Assembly (NCBI GenBank): GCA_963700285.1
Contig: CAVOXA010000001.1
Coordinates: 1,600,001-1,664,000 of the forward strand
Reading direction: 5' to 3'
DNA length: 64,000 bases
Source of the DNA: an uncultured Chloroflexia bacterium
GTDB lineage: Bacteria; Chloroflexota; Anaerolineae; JAAYZQ01
The position numbers were made by a program, and so were the translations under genes. Of the stretch, positions 51,948-59,440 are shown piece after piece (position 1 is the stretch's first letter; each line of letters starts with the position of its first letter). A model generated the notes under the pieces. That model made no database searches, was not told the origin of the DNA, and saw only the letters and a list, made by a program, of their open reading frames with translations.

Positions 51948-52979
51948 CTAGAAGACCAGCCCGTCGTGGCTGTCGCCGTACACTCCCTGCAGCGCGTCGT
52001 CGGGCTGTGGCATGGATGCAGATTCGGCAAAGGCCACGGCATCGTCGAGCAGCCGCTGAACGTCTCTTTCGATTCCCTGAACCGCGGCCTCCTCGAGGAG
52101 GCCAGAATCCAGAAGCTGTTGCCGGAAGGCGGGGATGGGATCACGGGCCTGCCAGGCTTCCATCTCGCCGGGCGGGCGGTAGATCTGAGGGTCGCCCTCG
52201 TAGTGGCCGCGGTATCGATAAGTCTTGGCTTCGACAAAGGATGGCCCTTGCCCGGAACGGGCCCGCACGGCTGCTTCCCGGACTGTTTCATAGACGCTCA
52301 AGACGTCGTTGCCGTCCACAATGGTGCCCGGAAAGCCATATCCCTCGGCCCGCACCGCCAGGTCAGCGACGGGAGCTTGTTTTGATTGGGGCGTCCCTTC
52401 TCCGTACAGGTTATTCTCACAGAAAAAGACAACGGGCAACCCCCACAGACCAGCCAGGTTGGCGGCCTCGTGGAAGGCGCCTTCGTTCACAGCGCCGTCG
52501 CCAAAAAAGGACAGAGCGACGCGCTTCTCGCCGCGCATGGCAAAGGCAAGGGCCGCCCCGACGGCAATGGGGATGCCCCCGGCCACGATGCCGTTGGCGC
52601 CCAGGATGCCCAGATCAAAGTCAGCGATGTGCAGCGATCCGCCCCTCCCGCGGCAGTAGCCCTCGGAGCGGGCTGCCAGCTCTGCCATCATGAAGCGAGG
52701 ATCGCCGCCTTTGGCAATCAGGTGTCCGTGTCCGCGGTGGGTACTGGTGATCACATCCTCCGTGTCGAGCGCCATGCATGCGCCCACTGCGGTTGCTTCT
52801 TGCCCCACACAGGAATGAATAAAACCGGGGATCAGACCACCTCGGCGTTCCTTGATGGCCCGCAGTTCAAATTGTCGGACCATCGTCATGCGCCGGAATA
52901 TCTCTGCCAGGCGATCTGGGGAATAGGCTGTTAGGCAGCTCTTGGCTTCTGCTTCGTTATTGGGGTTATCTGTGGACAT
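51948..52979 (-). CDS. 2-oxoacid/acetoin dehydrogenase E1 alpha subunit (TPP)
   Basis: GQEA, HRGHGH, GDGAVNEG..ENN, TYRYRGHYEGD. Confidence 0.94.
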   Translation of the reverse strand: MSTDNPNNEAEAKSCLTAYSPDRLAEIFRRMTMVRQFELRAIKERRGGLIPGFIHSCVGQEATAVGACMALDTEDVITSTHRGHGHLIAKGGDPRFMMAELAARSEGYCRGRGGSLHIADFDLGILGANGIVAGGIPIAVGAALAFAMRGEKRVALSFFGDGAVNEGAFHEAANLAGLWGLPVVFFCENNLYGEGTPQSKQAPVADLAVRAEGYGFPGTIVDGNDVLSVYETVREAAVRARSGQGPSFVEAKTYRYRGHYEGDPQIYRPPGEMEAWQARDPIPAFRQQLLDSGLLEEAAVQGIERDVQRLLDDAVAFAESASMPQPDDALQGVYGDSHDGLVF

Positions 52980-53073
52980 CCTCGTCTGCTCAACTCAATT
53001 GGGTTGGAATCATGGCCAGCCCTGACCGGTTAGTTCCCTGCTATCAGACCGCCGAGCCATTACTATGGGTTGG

Positions 53074-53102
53074 ATTATACCAGATCTTTGGAATGCAGTC
53101 AA
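53074..53102 (-). promoter_or_regulatory. Sigma70 promoter for the E1 operon
   Basis: TTGACT-17-TATAAT. Confidence 0.65.
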
Positions 53103-53197
53103 GTCCAGTTTAACAAGGTTTGCCTGATTATGCAATTACTGAACTCGAAATACAGTACAGCTTGAAGGGAGATGCCGCATTAAACAAAATGGGCCTA

Positions 53198-53226
53198 TTG
53201 ACAACCGGCAGTACTTGCGCTATAAT
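53198..53226 (+). promoter_or_regulatory. Consensus sigma70 promoter
   Basis: Perfect TTGACA-17-TATAAT. Confidence 0.75.
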
Positions 53227-53349
53227 GTTATCAGGCCCGAGCAAGCAGGATGCGGGATCAACTTCTATTTCCGGCCGAGATAAGGAGGTGGCGCGGCTAC
53301 GATAAACCAGTAGTGGTTCGATGAGCAGTGAGAAAGGAGCGATAGCACC

Positions 53350-56300
53350 GTGAAGATTAGGATGAGTATCCTCATTGGACTCGGAGCGGTCTTGATCTTG
53401 GCTGCAGCCTCCGGTCTGGTACTGGCCTCCGACGCCTCTCCTACTGAAGAACCGGCGAGTTCCCCTTTCTTCGATGTCACATTGCAACAAGCTGTGGATG
53501 AGCTGGACGGCAAAGCAAGGGTCGCTCGGACCGCAGCCCAAGCTGCGCCAACCCAGCACTACACCACCGATCCCAAGCTCTGGCCCGAGTGCGAGTTTGG
53601 TTTTACCCGTGACCTGCTCCAATGGCCTGGTTGCCACTACACCTCGGATCCCAACAATCCCAAGTGGAGCTGCGGCCCTGAAGATCCCCCCTGGCCGACC
53701 AAGGACTATACCTGGGATAGCGGACTCTGGCCCAAGGACTGCGGGAAGGAACTCACCCAGGATCCTGGCTTCTGGTGCGAGCCCACCTGGACGCGCGATC
53801 CAGAAAGATTCCCCCAATGTCGCTCCGACTATACCTCAAATCCCGAGGCGCTGAATTGGTGCCAGCCCCGCTATACCAGGGATCCCGCACAGTGGGACAA
53901 CTGCCCTACTGAGCCACCATTCTATACTGAAGACACAGCAGTTTGGAAAGAGTGTGATGCGGACGAATATACCAGCGACCCCTACCGCTGGAGCGAATGT
54001 CACTTTACGTCGGACCCAGGAAATCCGCACTGCATCGAACGGCCCTTCCCAACGCAGGACTATACCAGTAATCCCTTGACCTGGAAGGAGTGCGATCCAA
54101 GCTTCACCTGGGATCCGGCGCAGGTGCCCTGTGGAGATCCCAAGTACACCTCTGGCGATGCGTGGCCCTGGTGTGTCGATCCAGGCTATACCACCAACTC
54201 TGTCGAGTGGCACCTGTGCCATTTCACCTCTGATCCAAGAATGTGGCCGGATGCCTGTGGCGAGCCGTATGCGACCCAAGACTTTACCTGGGACAACAAG
54301 CTCTGGCCCAAGTCGTGTGGTGCGGAGCTGACCCGCGACCAGAACTTTTGGTGCGACCTGCGCTATACCACCGAACCGGGCGCGTGGCCCTGGTGTAATC
54401 CCGCCTGGACGTGGGATCCAGGCCAGGTCGTGTGTGCGCCCGGCTACACAAAGGACCCTGAAAGCTGGAAGGAATGCCGTGAGGGGCTGTATACACAGGA
54501 AGTGGGAGTCTGGCCGGCGTGCGAGTACTACACGGGCGATGCCCGTGTCTGGCCTGAATGCCACTATACCTCCGAGCCTGGCCTGTGGAAGGCTTGCGAC
54601 GAAGATCCGCCCTTTGCCACCAAGGACTATACGACCGATGCCGTGCTGTGGCCTGAGTGCGAACATCCCCCCGAGTACACCACGGACCCGACAGGCTGGC
54701 CGGAGTGCCACTATACTTATGACGCTCCTTTCTGGGCAGAATGCGAGCCTGTTCCGGGGGATTCCTCCGATCTGGGCGATGCCCCGGACAGCACCAACCA
54801 TGTCGGTAAAGCCATGACGGCCTATCCTGCGGGCGGGCCGCCGGGTGTTGGCGCCCGCTATCCTGCGGTCTTTGATCCCCTGACCGGTTTGCCCAAGGGC
54901 CCGCTGCACGTGCAGCCGCGGGCCGACTCTTGGCTGGGGGAGCGGGTAACCCTGGAAAAGGATGCCGACCAGTTGCCGGACGAAGACGCTGTGACCAATA
55001 TCGACCCGCGGACCGACACGCCCGATAGGGACAAGGCTGATGATGGTGCGAAGGTTCCCGTGCCGGCGCCTCACTGCGTGCGTACTGTGTTCAAGTACAC
55101 CGTCACGATCGCAGCGGGAGCGCCCAAGGTCGGCCGCTACGTCAATGTTTGGTTCGACTGGAACCGCGATGGCGATTGGGAGGATGCCTTCGAGTGCGCC
55201 AAGTCCGGGGATGCCCCCGAGTGGGCTGTGCAGAACCAGTTGGTCACTTTGGGTCCAGGTACCTATGTGCTAGAAACGCCGGCCTACCTGCCCTGGAATC
55301 CCCCGGGAGGCAATATCAGCGAGATCTGGATGCGTATATCCCTGGCCGACCAGGTGGCTCCCCGCGCCCCCGCGACCAGTCTAGCCGATGGGCGCGGCCC
55401 GGATGCTGGCTACAAGTACGGCGAAACCGAAGACTATTACTTTAAGCCATCCTGTCCCAAGCCTGTGGCCGACTTTGTCTGGGATCCAACCCCCGTCTGT
55501 GCCAAGCAACCCGTCTCCTTCCTGGATACCTCCACGAGCGCGCTTCCTCTGACGTGGTCCTGGGACTTTGATGGTCTCGGTAGCAGTAGCTTGCAGAACC
55601 CGACTTTCACCTTCAGCAGTGCTGGTACCTATGACGTGAGCTTGAAAGCGACCAATGCCTGTGGGCCTGATACAAAGACAAAAAGGGTACCCGTGATCGA
55701 CTGTCCGCCTCAGGATCCTGCCTATGACATTTATCTGAAGGACAACCTCGCCGATGACGGCTCTGTGCCCAGTACCGGTCCTTTCTGGCCGAGTCCTGAT
55801 ATCTGGGTTCGCAACGACGGGGACTGCACGGTAACCGCCCACCAAAACCCCATTGCCGGCAGCACGACGACGATCTGTGTCCGGGTCCGCAACCGCCTGG
55901 CCACAACAGTGGACAATATCACGGTCCAGGTTTACTATGCGAGTGCGGCCATGGGCCTCTCGTGGCCGGGGAGCTTTAGCCCTGTGGGTAGTCTGACGAT
56001 TGCAAGCCTGGCCGGAGGCGCCGTGACGGTCAAACCCGTCTCGTGGAGCGTGCCCGGTATTTCCGGCCATTTCTGCCTGCTAGCGCGGGCTAATGCACCC
56101 AAAGATCCCATCGGTAGTGGCACTGATACAGTCGCACCGGTTGACCACGTGCCGAACAACAACAACATCGCCCAGAAGAATCTCTATGCCGTTGACTATC
56201 CCCAAGTGACCCACTGTGGGTTCTTTAGTACCGCTGAGCACACGGACGTCGTCGTCTTTGATGCGGTCAATACCAAAGCGACAGCAACAGACGTAGACAT

Positions 56301-56628
56301 CGAGTTCGACAGCAACGATTTCCCGCCGGGCGGGGAACTGATTGTGGAGCCCGGAAGCCTCTGGGGACGGTGGACCACGCTGACCAACTTTGACCAGTCG
56401 GGGTCCACACTGCTGCCAACCGGCTTCCCGGCTACGATGGGTGGCGTTGAAATGACCGGCCATGAGGCAGCGTCGCTCACAATGACCATAACAGCCGAGA
56501 TCGACGAAAGCTTTACCATCAGTGTCACAGAGATTTCTGGGAGCAAGGCGGTGGGGGGCATCGTGTTCGTGCGCGACCTGCCTGACTGCGTGTATCTGCC
56601 GGTCATCATGAAAAAGACACAGCCGTAG
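53350..56628 (+). CDS. Secreted protein: 27 Cys/Trp-rich repeats, GEVED-like domain, PKD, CARDB-like domain, C-terminal YLP motif
   Basis: Signal peptide; YTxDPxxWPxC repeats; DLGDAPDS..WFDWNRDGDW..GETEDY; WSWDF..SLQNPTFTF..GTYDV; CVYLPVIMK. Confidence 0.85.
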   Translation: MKIRMSILIGLGAVLILAAASGLVLASDASPTEEPASSPFFDVTLQQAVDELDGKARVARTAAQAAPTQHYTTDPKLWPECEFGFTRDLLQWPGCHYTSDPNNPKWSCGPEDPPWPTKDYTWDSGLWPKDCGKELTQDPGFWCEPTWTRDPERFPQCRSDYTSNPEALNWCQPRYTRDPAQWDNCPTEPPFYTEDTAVWKECDADEYTSDPYRWSECHFTSDPGNPHCIERPFPTQDYTSNPLTWKECDPSFTWDPAQVPCGDPKYTSGDAWPWCVDPGYTTNSVEWHLCHFTSDPRMWPDACGEPYATQDFTWDNKLWPKSCGAELTRDQNFWCDLRYTTEPGAWPWCNPAWTWDPGQVVCAPGYTKDPESWKECREGLYTQEVGVWPACEYYTGDARVWPECHYTSEPGLWKACDEDPPFATKDYTTDAVLWPECEHPPEYTTDPTGWPECHYTYDAPFWAECEPVPGDSSDLGDAPDSTNHVGKAMTAYPAGGPPGVGARYPAVFDPLTGLPKGPLHVQPRADSWLGERVTLEKDADQLPDEDAVTNIDPRTDTPDRDKADDGAKVPVPAPHCVRTVFKYTVTIAAGAPKVGRYVNVWFDWNRDGDWEDAFECAKSGDAPEWAVQNQLVTLGPGTYVLETPAYLPWNPPGGNISEIWMRISLADQVAPRAPATSLADGRGPDAGYKYGETEDYYFKPSCPKPVADFVWDPTPVCAKQPVSFLDTSTSALPLTWSWDFDGLGSSSLQNPTFTFSSAGTYDVSLKATNACGPDTKTKRVPVIDCPPQDPAYDIYLKDNLADDGSVPSTGPFWPSPDIWVRNDGDCTVTAHQNPIAGSTTTICVRVRNRLATTVDNITVQVYYASAAMGLSWPGSFSPVGSLTIASLAGGAVTVKPVSWSVPGISGHFCLLARANAPKDPIGSGTDTVAPVDHVPNNNNIAQKNLYAVDYPQVTHCGFFSTAEHTDVVVFDAVNTKATATDVDIEFDSNDFPPGGELIVEPGSLWGRWTTLTNFDQSGSTLLPTGFPATMGGVEMTGHEAASLTMTITAEIDESFTISVTEISGSKAVGGIVFVRDLPDCVYLPVIMKKTQP

Positions 56629-56715
56629 TCAGGGGAGGAATACCCGGTCTCGATCTGTGATGTATGACCGCTGACAGCCACCGGACGCATGAGCCGGTGG
56701 CTGTTTCTGTATCTC

Positions 56716-58673: not shown

Positions 58674-59440
58674 CTAACCCGCCAAGCCACCGCCGTCCAC
58701 CACCAGGGCCGTGCCGGTGACAAAGGATGCTGCGTCGCTGGCCAGGTAGAGGGCCGCCTGGGCGATGTCCTCCGGCCTGCCGATGCGCTGCAGCGGCCGG
58801 TCGGCCGCCTCGGCCAGGAACTGCTCATCCGCCTGGCCCAGCTGTCGCGCCTCGCTGCGCAGCATGGGGGTGTCGGTGTCGCCGGGACAGATGCAGTTGA
58901 CGCGGATGTTCTGCTCTCCATGGTCGAGGGCCATGGCCCGGGTCATGTTCACCACGGCTCCCTTGGAGGCGCAGTAGGAGACCGCGTTGCGCCCGCCGAC
59001 CAGCCCCCAGCCGGAGGCTGTGTTGATGATGACGCCGCCGCCGGCCTTGGCCATCACCGGGATGGCGTACTGGCTCAGCAAAAAGATCGACTTGACGTTG
59101 ACGGCCATGACCCGGTCCCACTCCTCCTCGGTGATGTCCAGGACGGTGGTCCGCCGGATGATGCCCGCGTTGTTGACCAGGATGTCCAAGCGCCCAAAGG
59201 TGGTCCACGGTCTGCTGCACGGCGCGCCGACAGTCGTCTGTGCGCGTGACGTCACAATGTATGAAAAGGCCGCTGGCTCGCCTCTGGACAGGATCTCCTG
59301 TACGACGGCCTGCCCGCCCGCTTCGTCCAGATCCACGACGGCAGACGGCTGCACCTTCGCGGGCGAACAGTAGGGCCGTCGCCCGGCCGATGCCCGATGC
59401 CGCCGCCAGTGATAAGGGCGACCTGTTTTCTCAGTAGCAC
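58674..59440 (-). CDS. SDR-family oxidoreductase (frameshifted)
   Basis: ALITGGG, NNAG, YCASK, CPGDTDTPML. Confidence 0.88.

Follow-up and report, generated by a model that had tools for sequence, protein, structure and literature searches.

A 27-unit, cysteine-ended tandem repeat array in a predicted exported protein of uncultured Chloroflexota

The antifreeze protein of Tenebrio molitor is a narrow β-solenoid stapled by cysteine (Cys) residues and built from 12-residue coils of the form T-C-T-x-S-x-x-C-x-x-A-x, and the PSCD domains of the diatom pleuralins are eukaryotic domains of ~87 residues with several Cys each. In CshA-type fibrillar adhesins a GEVED domain lies directly downstream of the ligand-binding tip domain (as given in the excerpted text of PMC10952558), and archaeal DUF4350/GldG-like proteins have been predicted to take part in a secretion or membrane-remodelling complex (likewise from an excerpt, PMC5898192). 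The subject of this report is a gene in a 64,000-nucleotide stretch of DNA from an uncultured Chloroflexia bacterium (contig CAVOXA010000001.1 of assembly GCA_963700285.1, positions 1,600,001 to 1,664,000; hereafter the window), which encodes a predicted exported protein of 1092 amino acids (aa) that carries an array of 27 short, Cys-ended units in its N-terminal part and a GEVED domain behind it. It is quite possible, if still somewhat doubtful, that this array is a new extracellular, Cys-linked and ordered module, that the surface protein to which it contributes the N-terminal part is adhesin-like and well transcribed, and that a co-inherited pair of GldG/DUF4350-type membrane proteins helps to export, hold or assemble it. 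The gene and its array are laid out as follows:

53350..56628, + strand: open reading frame (ORF) of the 1092-aa exported protein, with a GTG start and its stop at 56626-56628 (open reading frame analysis)
53548..54744, + strand: array of 27 Cys-terminated units, aa 67-465, consensus Y-T-[ST]-D-P-x-[LIV]-W-P-[EW]-C
53635..54219, + strand: first 13-unit block of the array, units 3-15, aa 96-290 (in-register alignment with the second block)
54220..54744, + strand: second block, units 16-27, aa 291-465 (in-register alignment with the first block)

The units of the array were defined by cutting residues 67-465 (399 aa) after each Cys, which gives 27 units of 11-23 aa. A repeat of exactly this kind had been proposed from the letters of the window (the sequence-only reading), and both the repeat and its recurring residues withstood the cut and a shuffle test. 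Each of the 27 units contains a threonine (Thr) that is preceded by an aromatic residue or, in two units, by Leu (Y 18, F 5, W 2, L 2); Asp is the usual residue two positions after the Thr (D 20, N 3, E 3 and G 1, thus 20/27), Pro follows at the third position in 16/27, and a Trp is found no more than four residues ahead of the Cys in 23/27. The distance from Thr to Cys is nine residues in 17 of the 27 units and in 467/638 units family-wide. When the 399 aa were shuffled 10,000 times, the number of motif units averaged 1.35 and never exceeded 7, against the 27 observed, and the standard deviation of the Cys gaps (2.99) lies well below the shuffle mean of 13.1 (minimum 6.57), so that the pattern is far beyond chance. 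The position of the array was only partly as had been described: the 27 units are there, but they do not stand directly behind the signal region, since a mature segment of 40 residues (aa 27-66) lies between the two, and the array begins at 53548, the earlier start of 53557 corresponding to His70.

The 27 units are not equivalent, which refines the earlier description: there are in-register blocks, units that start with His, and long doubled units. Residues 96-290 and 291-465 align in register with 41% identity over 169 aa (E 4e-35), which indicates that the array was formed by an ancient duplication of a block of 13 units. His opens five units, immediately behind the preceding Cys, and each of the five conserved Cys-His pairs made in this way is followed by x-T-S-D-P...C; a long unit of the form P-[WYF]-[PA]-T-x-D-[YF]-T-x-[DN] comes after four of the five His-started units, the fifth being the last unit of the array. 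At the DNA level the units have diverged: Tandem Repeats Finder reported no DNA tandem repeat at score 30, and the mean DNA identity among the 17 cores with nine-residue spacing is 55%. The array is acidic (69 Asp+Glu versus 27 Lys+Arg; isoelectric point 4.27) and 17% aromatic, with Trp at 8%, Cys at 7% and Tyr at 5.5%. The Cys residues are unclustered, being 11-23 residues apart, and no CxxCH, CxxC or CxC motif is found. The earlier statement that this is not a cytochrome c is therefore upheld, a c-type cytochrome being ruled out for a protein with neither CxxCH nor CxxC, and a metallothionein-like binder was rejected in the same way, as the clustered CxC/CxxC/CC motifs of such proteins are absent.

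Relatives of the array protein are few. A word-indexed search returned 24 proteins including its own (23 others), of which those with an organism name are from Chloroflexota and nearly all have the same layout, and 10 were recovered when 1.84 billion cluster representatives were scanned exhaustively with phmmer. The array gene is present in 5/41 related genomes (G000, which is the window's own genome, G001, G003, G012 and G017), that is in 3/16 genera of one Chloroflexota family/order, and in 0/18 genomes from other families of the class; broader searches of the family and order gave no genome outside the 23 known. It is a single-copy gene in its own 7.05-Mb genome, which is 89% complete. A hidden Markov model of the unit (14 positions) gave 26 matches at E<=10 in this genome, every one of them within the array gene, and only two isolated weak matches in 400 other genomes of the phylum.

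Within this narrow distribution the array is strictly conserved. The ratio of nonsynonymous to synonymous substitution (dN/dS), measured against an orthologue from the same genus, is 0.13 for the array, 0.21 for the C-terminal 627 aa and 0.18 for the N-terminal 66 aa, which points to strong purifying selection on the array. In the 27 Thr columns of 24 homologues, with identities down to 39%, there are 590 Thr, 7 gaps and no other residue, and the Cys columns (572/588) are invariant save where a whole unit is deleted, at a single substitution and in one column that the aligner displaced. The earlier suggestion that selection acts on the peptide motif of units that have diverged as DNA is borne out by these figures. 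The count of units (24-29) and the length of each orthologous unit are likewise kept in homologues down to 39% identity, each unit retains its own orthologous identity across genera, and units have been gained or lost singly (+1 in 12 sequences) or in runs of two or three. Taken together, the excess over shuffled sequences, the dN/dS, the retained unit number and lengths, and the invariance of Thr and Cys are more easily reconciled with a defined structure than with a floppy linker. Small ordered units would also be expected because 7/11 core positions are constrained, a hydrophobic residue precedes the Trp, and the D-P opening could form a helical turn; from this we infer that the units are small ordered elements.

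The unit had been called unrecognised, and the databases agree. At E<=1 only GEVED and PKD domains were matched in Pfam, with no match in the array and none to SLH, and no NCBIfam family was matched anywhere in the protein (0 families at E<=1). Amongst the sequences of the PDB the best phmmer hit to the array had an E-value of 0.16 and the best hit of the unit profile 0.48, and the top score of the array in the ESM Atlas was 0.76, which is under the useful range. Literature searches with motif strings and on Chloroflexi sheath/surface proteins and sorting signals returned nothing relevant. On these searches the unit is not described by any curated family, solved structure or searched paper. 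The overall kind of protein is familiar, namely an exported multi-domain surface protein with GEVED and PKD domains, and there is an open chance that the array itself represents a new fold or a new modification. The remaining parts of the protein are:

53350..53427, + strand: predicted Sec signal peptide, aa 1-26, with a K/R n-region, a hydrophobic core and V-L-A followed by S-D (sequence reading)
53428..53547, + strand: mature N-terminal segment, aa 27-66, a conserved peptide with a variable linker behind it
54745..55443, + strand: acidic G-D-L-G-D-A-P-D-S-T-N-H region with many invariant columns, then the GEVED domain (Pfam)
55459..55695, + strand: PKD domain, aa 704-782 (PF18911, E 1.4e-10; PF00801, E 3e-9)
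55717..56574, + strand: two more predicted β-sandwich domains, aa ~818-916 and 963-1075 (AlphaFold2; no Pfam match)
56578..56625, + strand: C-terminal tail D-L-P-D-C-V-Y-L-P-V-I-M-K-K-T-Q-P, kept in homologues as L-P-x-C-x-Y-L-P-x-I-x-K

There are homologues that match the 1092-aa protein in both length and layout. The signal-peptide-like N-terminus agrees with the export that had been predicted earlier; in homologues the signal peptide ends in G-L-A-F-A, again followed by S-D, and the protein is thus likely to be exported via Sec and cut after aa 26. Ahead of the array lies the peptide S-D-A-S-P..E-P..S-P-F-F-x-A-T-L-Q-Q-A-V-D-E-L-D-G-K, and with 14 invariant columns in aa 27-52 (20 sequences) this is the most conserved stretch of the protein. 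Behind the array and the acidic region, and so downstream of the N-terminal module, stands the GEVED domain (PF20009, E 1.1e-9, aa 597-698, 55138-55443; Pfam scan at E<=1). The acidic stretch ahead of it (54745-55137, aa 466-596) is highly conserved, has no family match and is modelled by AlphaFold2 with low confidence; its pattern is G-D-L-G-D-A-P-D-S-T-N-H...M-T-A-Y-P...F-D-P-x-T-G-x-P-x-G-P-x-H...D-A-D..P-D-E-D...D-x-P-D-x-D..D-D-G, and it may be an unmodelled N-terminal part of a GEVED-type domain or a metal-binding region. The PKD domain is missing from about half of the homologues, the forms without it being ~1000-1030 aa in length.

The C-terminal 627 aa were modelled by AlphaFold2 from a 21-sequence alignment with a mean predicted local distance difference test score (pLDDT) of 62.6, in which the PKD domain and the two further domains form confident β-sandwiches; these two consist of all-β blocks of pLDDT 75-92, and aa 466-569 fall below 50. 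A Foldseek search of the model against the PDB found only generic multi-Ig-like chains with template modelling (TM) scores of at most 0.21, which says nothing on function. Unlike a fibrillar adhesin, the protein has no long stalk (one PKD domain and two predicted β-sandwiches) and no known C-terminal anchor: the C-terminal end was found to have no membrane helix, no LPXTG and no match to an NCBIfam sorting domain. In one homologue, P0019, the same array precedes CarboxypepD_reg, PLD-like and DUF5123 domains, and the C-terminus reads I-Y-L-P-L-V-V-R-D-H. The array thus stands before two different C-terminal parts, which marks it as a portable N-terminal module.

The favoured proposal can be drawn in outline as follows. 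The array would be a folded, cysteine-stapled, acidic and aromatic module that makes up the N-terminal, and probably distal, part of a surface protein. Each unit would be a small turn, with D-P-x-[LIV]-W as a capped helical turn and with Tyr, Trp and Pro packing together, whilst the Cys residues would join the units to one another or to neighbouring molecules. Since the array sits where the adhesive tip domain sits in fibrillar adhesins, upstream of GEVED, it may serve as a ligand-binding or a spacing part, and its possible ligands would include polysaccharide, a mineral surface or the cell's own envelope. The membrane pair described below may help to export, hold or assemble the array protein.

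Export is also supported by the tail of the protein. Among the genome's 29,974 stop-to-stop ORFs of 100 aa or more, 29 end in a Y-L-P-type tail, against ~6.5 expected from its internal frequency, and the tail typically takes the form (V/I)-Y-L-P-(L/V/I)-(I/V)-x-(R/K) with 0-4 further residues, in P0019 too; examples are found at G000 C10:1655191-1666871, C17:1562-8008 and C22:163206-166793. Amongst the 17 longest tailed ORFs, 15 have Pfam domains, mostly of exoprotein type (peptidases C25, M28 and C1, alkaline phosphatase, GHL10, cadherin-like, CARDB, BNR and a multihaem cytochrome), and it is this company that supports the export of the array protein. It suggests that the Y-L-P tail is a shared, undescribed sorting or secretion tag of the lineage.

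Upstream of the gene, the sequence-only reading had noted a perfect consensus promoter, and this is indeed found:

53198..53226, + strand: sigma-70-type promoter, TTGACA-17 nucleotides (nt)-TATAAT, a 12/12 consensus match
53227..53349, + strand: 5' leader of ~123 nt, with an internal Shine-Dalgarno (SD)-like AAGGAGG at ~53282-53288 and the ribosome-binding site GAAAGGAG ~10 nt ahead of the GTG

The hexamers and their spacing recur ahead of the G001 and G003 orthologues, and G012 retains the -10. Over its final 80 nt the leader differs from G001 at two positions, while coding dS is 0.41-0.56, so that in this comparison it is conserved far more strongly than synonymous sites. Rfam gave no match to the leader at E<=1, no stable fold was predicted for it (z = +1.64), and its internal AAGGAGG lies ~60 nt upstream of the start codon; SD-like stabilisers of mRNA are known in highly expressed Gram-positive genes, of which the leader is reminiscent. 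On the - strand, a second, near-consensus promoter (TTGACT-17-TATAAT, 11/12, with a TG extension) was observed at 53102-53074, directed towards a 2-oxoacid dehydrogenase E1 alpha gene at 52979-51948.

Transcripts of the gene were found in public data, where its best run matches are metatranscriptome libraries. Contigs with 0-2 differences cover the gene in three metatranscriptome libraries from three studies. In one of these (X1) there are eight listed pieces, all within 53241-56666 and none elsewhere in the 16 kb compared; a short partial match at ~59154-59186 falls outside the listed pieces. The longest contig from an RNA library, also from X1, begins at 53241, with none reaching further upstream, whilst a contig from a DNA run spans 52774-53582; the start of the RNA contig so near to the promoter gives a weak hint in its support. 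An unlinked 20-kb stretch of the same genome yielded only sparse pieces from the same RNA libraries, but this does not establish that the gene is well transcribed, for the runs were chosen with the array gene, contigs cannot rank expression, and uncovered parts of the flank and of the control are no sign of silence. What the coverage does show is that the array gene has transcripts, which are unlikely to be rare. Among the runs compared, both the RNA and the DNA runs in which the gene occurs carry the label of sediment metagenomes. For an S-layer protein one would look for a very strong promoter, a long leader, high abundance, self-assembly and an SLH or other wall anchor; seen here are the consensus promoter, the conserved 123-nt leader and the RNA contigs, and Pfam gave no SLH match.

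In the window the array gene is flanked by opposite-strand housekeeping genes, namely those for a 2-oxoacid dehydrogenase E1 pair, for short-chain dehydrogenases, for a proline racemase-like protein and for glycine cleavage P. In its relatives the divergent upstream neighbour is a set of two tandem paralogues of ~830-890 aa with matches to DUF4350, ABC_transp_aux, GIFT and ThuA-like families:

L009 9195-4487: membrane pair (tblastn)
L010 9333-4640: membrane pair (tblastn)
L011 5944-1200: membrane pair (tblastn)
G000 C14:576188-581296 (L052 8189-13296): membrane pair of the window's own genome, on a contig other than that of the window

By tblastn the pair lies directly upstream of the array gene in L009 (G001), L010 (G017), L011 (G003) and L054, the last being a metagenome contig nearly identical to L011 and probably from the same species. 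Of the five loci for which 3 kb or more of upstream DNA is available, four thus show this adjacency and only the window does not. In G012 the array gene lies 273 bp from the upstream end of its contig, and the partner starts mid-gene at the start of another contig, which is compatible with adjacency, and matches to array and partner share four contig sizes (6527, 6505, 7391 and 5453), an unconfirmed hint of more adjacent pairs. A G003 partner used as query matches exactly the five array genomes (5/41), and two control genes matched 28/41 and 3/41 of the same genomes. For the widespread control gene, the array-less genera g9, g10 and g11 have 63-66% identity to G000, and the array-bearing g3 and g12 have 65% and 58%. 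Since array-less genera are as close to G000 as array-bearing ones, the three positive genera do not, by this one gene, appear to be an exclusive clade.

The similarity of the window to G001 sets in ~10 bp ahead of the -35 (~53185-53200), and beyond this point are the E1 genes here and the DUF4350-type pair in G001. This break, together with the presence of the pair on another contig, marks a rearrangement that split the two loci and left the promoter intact. Each partner has a polytopic N-terminal region of ~340 aa with no family match, followed by two GldG-like domains parted by a membrane hairpin; by the positive-inside rule both GldG-like domains are likely to face outward. Their GldG scores (17.6-19.8 bits) lie far below the family cut-off of 389.85 (TIGR03521), and no ABC transporter gene was found beside the partner in the loci examined. 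In G001, the DUF4350-type gene that adjoins the array gene (L009 6689-9195; C6:40468-42914) shows several in-frame stops and frame changes, with 7 TGA in one match, and is either a decaying gene or the product of an assembly with indel errors.

Several observations weigh against an ordered, Cys-linked module that is co-inherited with a membrane pair. AlphaFold2 modelled the array with a mean pLDDT of 35.7 and a predicted TM score of 0.18, with 401 of 403 residues below 50, almost no secondary structure, and neither strands nor a solenoid, although the alignment held 25 sequences and this shallow depth may itself cause low confidence; since no fold was obtained, the claim of a folded array draws on conservation alone. 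The sequence-only reading had held that a lack of conserved homologues coupled with a disordered prediction would speak against a new repeat, and here conserved homologues do exist whilst the prediction came without confidence. Aliphatic residues are scarce (1 Ile, 1 Met, 10 Val and 14 Leu in 396 aa) and Pro makes up 13%, a composition that extended or disordered regions typically share. Across homologues the array contains 24-29 Cys, mostly 27 or 28, and the whole protein 31-39, so that both parities occur and a fixed, fully paired intramolecular disulfide ladder cannot be a conserved feature. The 89%-complete genome gave no match to DsbB or VKOR. Cys numbers are even in 156 of 327 signal-peptide-like ORFs, which is no even excess, and in 12 of the 16 Y-L-P-tailed ORFs that contain Cys, but this heuristic is crude and too noisy to be of use. 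A purely structural role would hardly explain why the Thr is never Ser, Val or another residue. The genomes that carry array and pair are kin, so that the co-distribution amounts to three genera and not five independent events, and in the window's own genome the two loci lie apart. On the other side, four DsbA-like (Thioredoxin_4) matches in the genome indicate a capacity for disulfide formation. Three DsbA-like (Thioredoxin_4) matches stand in tandem within 1.6 kb (G000 C10:238264-239868), and two of these were flagged for an in-frame TGA.

The low pLDDT and near absence of secondary structure, the richness of the array in Pro, Thr, Asp and Glu, and the lack of relatives beyond one order would all suit a disordered, Pro-rich spacer whose motif is a by-product of repeat expansion. 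This is very improbable, as the dN/dS of the array is lower than that of the folded C-terminal domains, Thr and Cys are invariant, and the units are old and diverged (by their DNA identity and the missing DNA repeat) and have kept their orthologous identity across genera; Trp, Cys and Tyr, at the frequencies found here, are moreover residues that promote order.

The invariant Thr, the fixed Thr-Cys distance, the five Cys-His pairs and the N-terminal peptide are not explained by pure structure, and these keep a chemical reading alive. The 27 units could be sequons for chemical modification, in which the Thr is modified (for example O-glycosylated while the protein is exported or afterwards) and/or the Cys is cross-linked to the Thr or to some other side chain within its unit, to give a heavily modified stalk, and such a role could coexist with a structural one. 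A chemical role predicts a Thr that is never replaced by Ser, even in homologues of 39% identity, and a preferred spacing to the Cys, and both are found; self-contained units would suit the gain and loss of single units and the two Cys parities, and the nearly invariant peptide ahead of the array resembles a recognition leader. Human TMEM260 is a protein O-mannosyltransferase, and six matches to the TMEM260-like GT-C family (PF11028) are present in the genome. The modifying enzyme that the sequence-only reading had envisaged near homologues was not found: in the loci examined the gene is adjoined by housekeeping genes or by the DUF4350-type pair. LanC-like (PF05147) and Dpy19 (PF10034) families also have no match in the genome, which are weak negatives as the control genomes are silent too, and enzymes of the type that act on ribosomally synthesized and post-translationally modified peptides (RiPPs) take short cytoplasmic precursors and not a 1092-aa Sec substrate. 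Modification of this kind appears unlikely. A lanthipeptide or other RiPP precursor was rejected, given the 1092-aa Sec substrate and the neighbourhoods examined, in which no LanB/C/M or radical SAM gene was found. In a more specific form, which is decidedly improbable, each unit would be a reaction site at which the Thr and the Cys nine residues on are joined or modified outside the cytoplasm, with the membrane pair and the N-terminal peptide as the machinery of maturation or assembly.

The same cysteines could instead be kept reduced, the array then presenting a surface of thiols and carboxylates outside the cell for metal or mineral binding or for redox chemistry. Evenly spaced, invariant Cys (27 here) in both parities amongst homologues, the acidic and aromatic composition, and the five conserved Cys-His pairs, which could make Cys/His/Asp/Cys sites, are in keeping with this, as are the missing DsbB and VKOR and the sediment label of the gene-bearing runs, since such sites can be anoxic. 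It is nonetheless a rather remote prospect: CxxC, CxC and CxxCH clusters are absent, a spacing of one Cys per 13-14 residues differs from that of metallothioneins and known metal sites, the loci examined contain no linked genes for the transport of metals or resistance to them, DsbA-like genes are present, and Thr, the most invariant residue, is no usual metal ligand.

Short Cys-containing tandem repeats that lie outside the databases and beyond AlphaFold2 are seldom met and can point to a new fold or to new chemistry in proteins. To establish whether the array is a disulfide-stapled rod, a sequon for glycans or cross-links, or a surface of thiols would be to define a new repeat family, and would offer a first point of entry to the cell surface of a Chloroflexota order about which little is known. 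If the modification reading were true, this would be a large Sec-exported protein with a 27-fold array of a new cross-link or glycan sequon; if the array is only a lineage-specific spacer, its interest would be local. The function of the GldG/DUF4350 kind of protein is open in bacteria and archaea, and solving the array could possibly give it a role.

Of the described systems, the GldG/DUF4350/GIFT membrane proteins resemble the partner proteins, which carry two such domains each and differ in their extra polytopic N-terminal ~340 aa, their scores far under the cut-off and the absence of a neighbouring ABC transporter. The pleuralin PSCD domains share with the array an extracellular, tandem arrangement rich in Pro, Cys and Asp with little regular secondary structure, a likeness of composition only and not of sequence. 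The Tenebrio antifreeze protein is likewise a series of very short tandem units in which Thr and Cys are invariant and aliphatics few, but has two Cys per coil where the array has one per unit, and the units of the array are 11-23 aa in length, have Trp/Tyr in all and are not predicted to form a solenoid. Aromatic cell-wall or choline-binding repeats (CW_binding_1) and other modular anchors of the envelope such as SLH domains are, like the array, short aromatic-rich tandem repeats that are portable on structural proteins and enzymes, although they have no Cys and a different unit length and motif, and the array has no Pfam match. The CshA-type adhesins, as far as the excerpted account describes them, differ in that the array has no similarity to NR2, in ending with LPXTG and a membrane helix rather than a Y-L-P tail, and in belonging to a Gram-positive coccus rather than to Chloroflexota. 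In the same account they nevertheless share the order of parts seen here, with a signal peptide, an N-terminal non-stalk module, GEVED next to it, Ig-like domains and a sorting-type end, and in this order the array occupies the place of the CshA ligand-binding NR2 tip domain.

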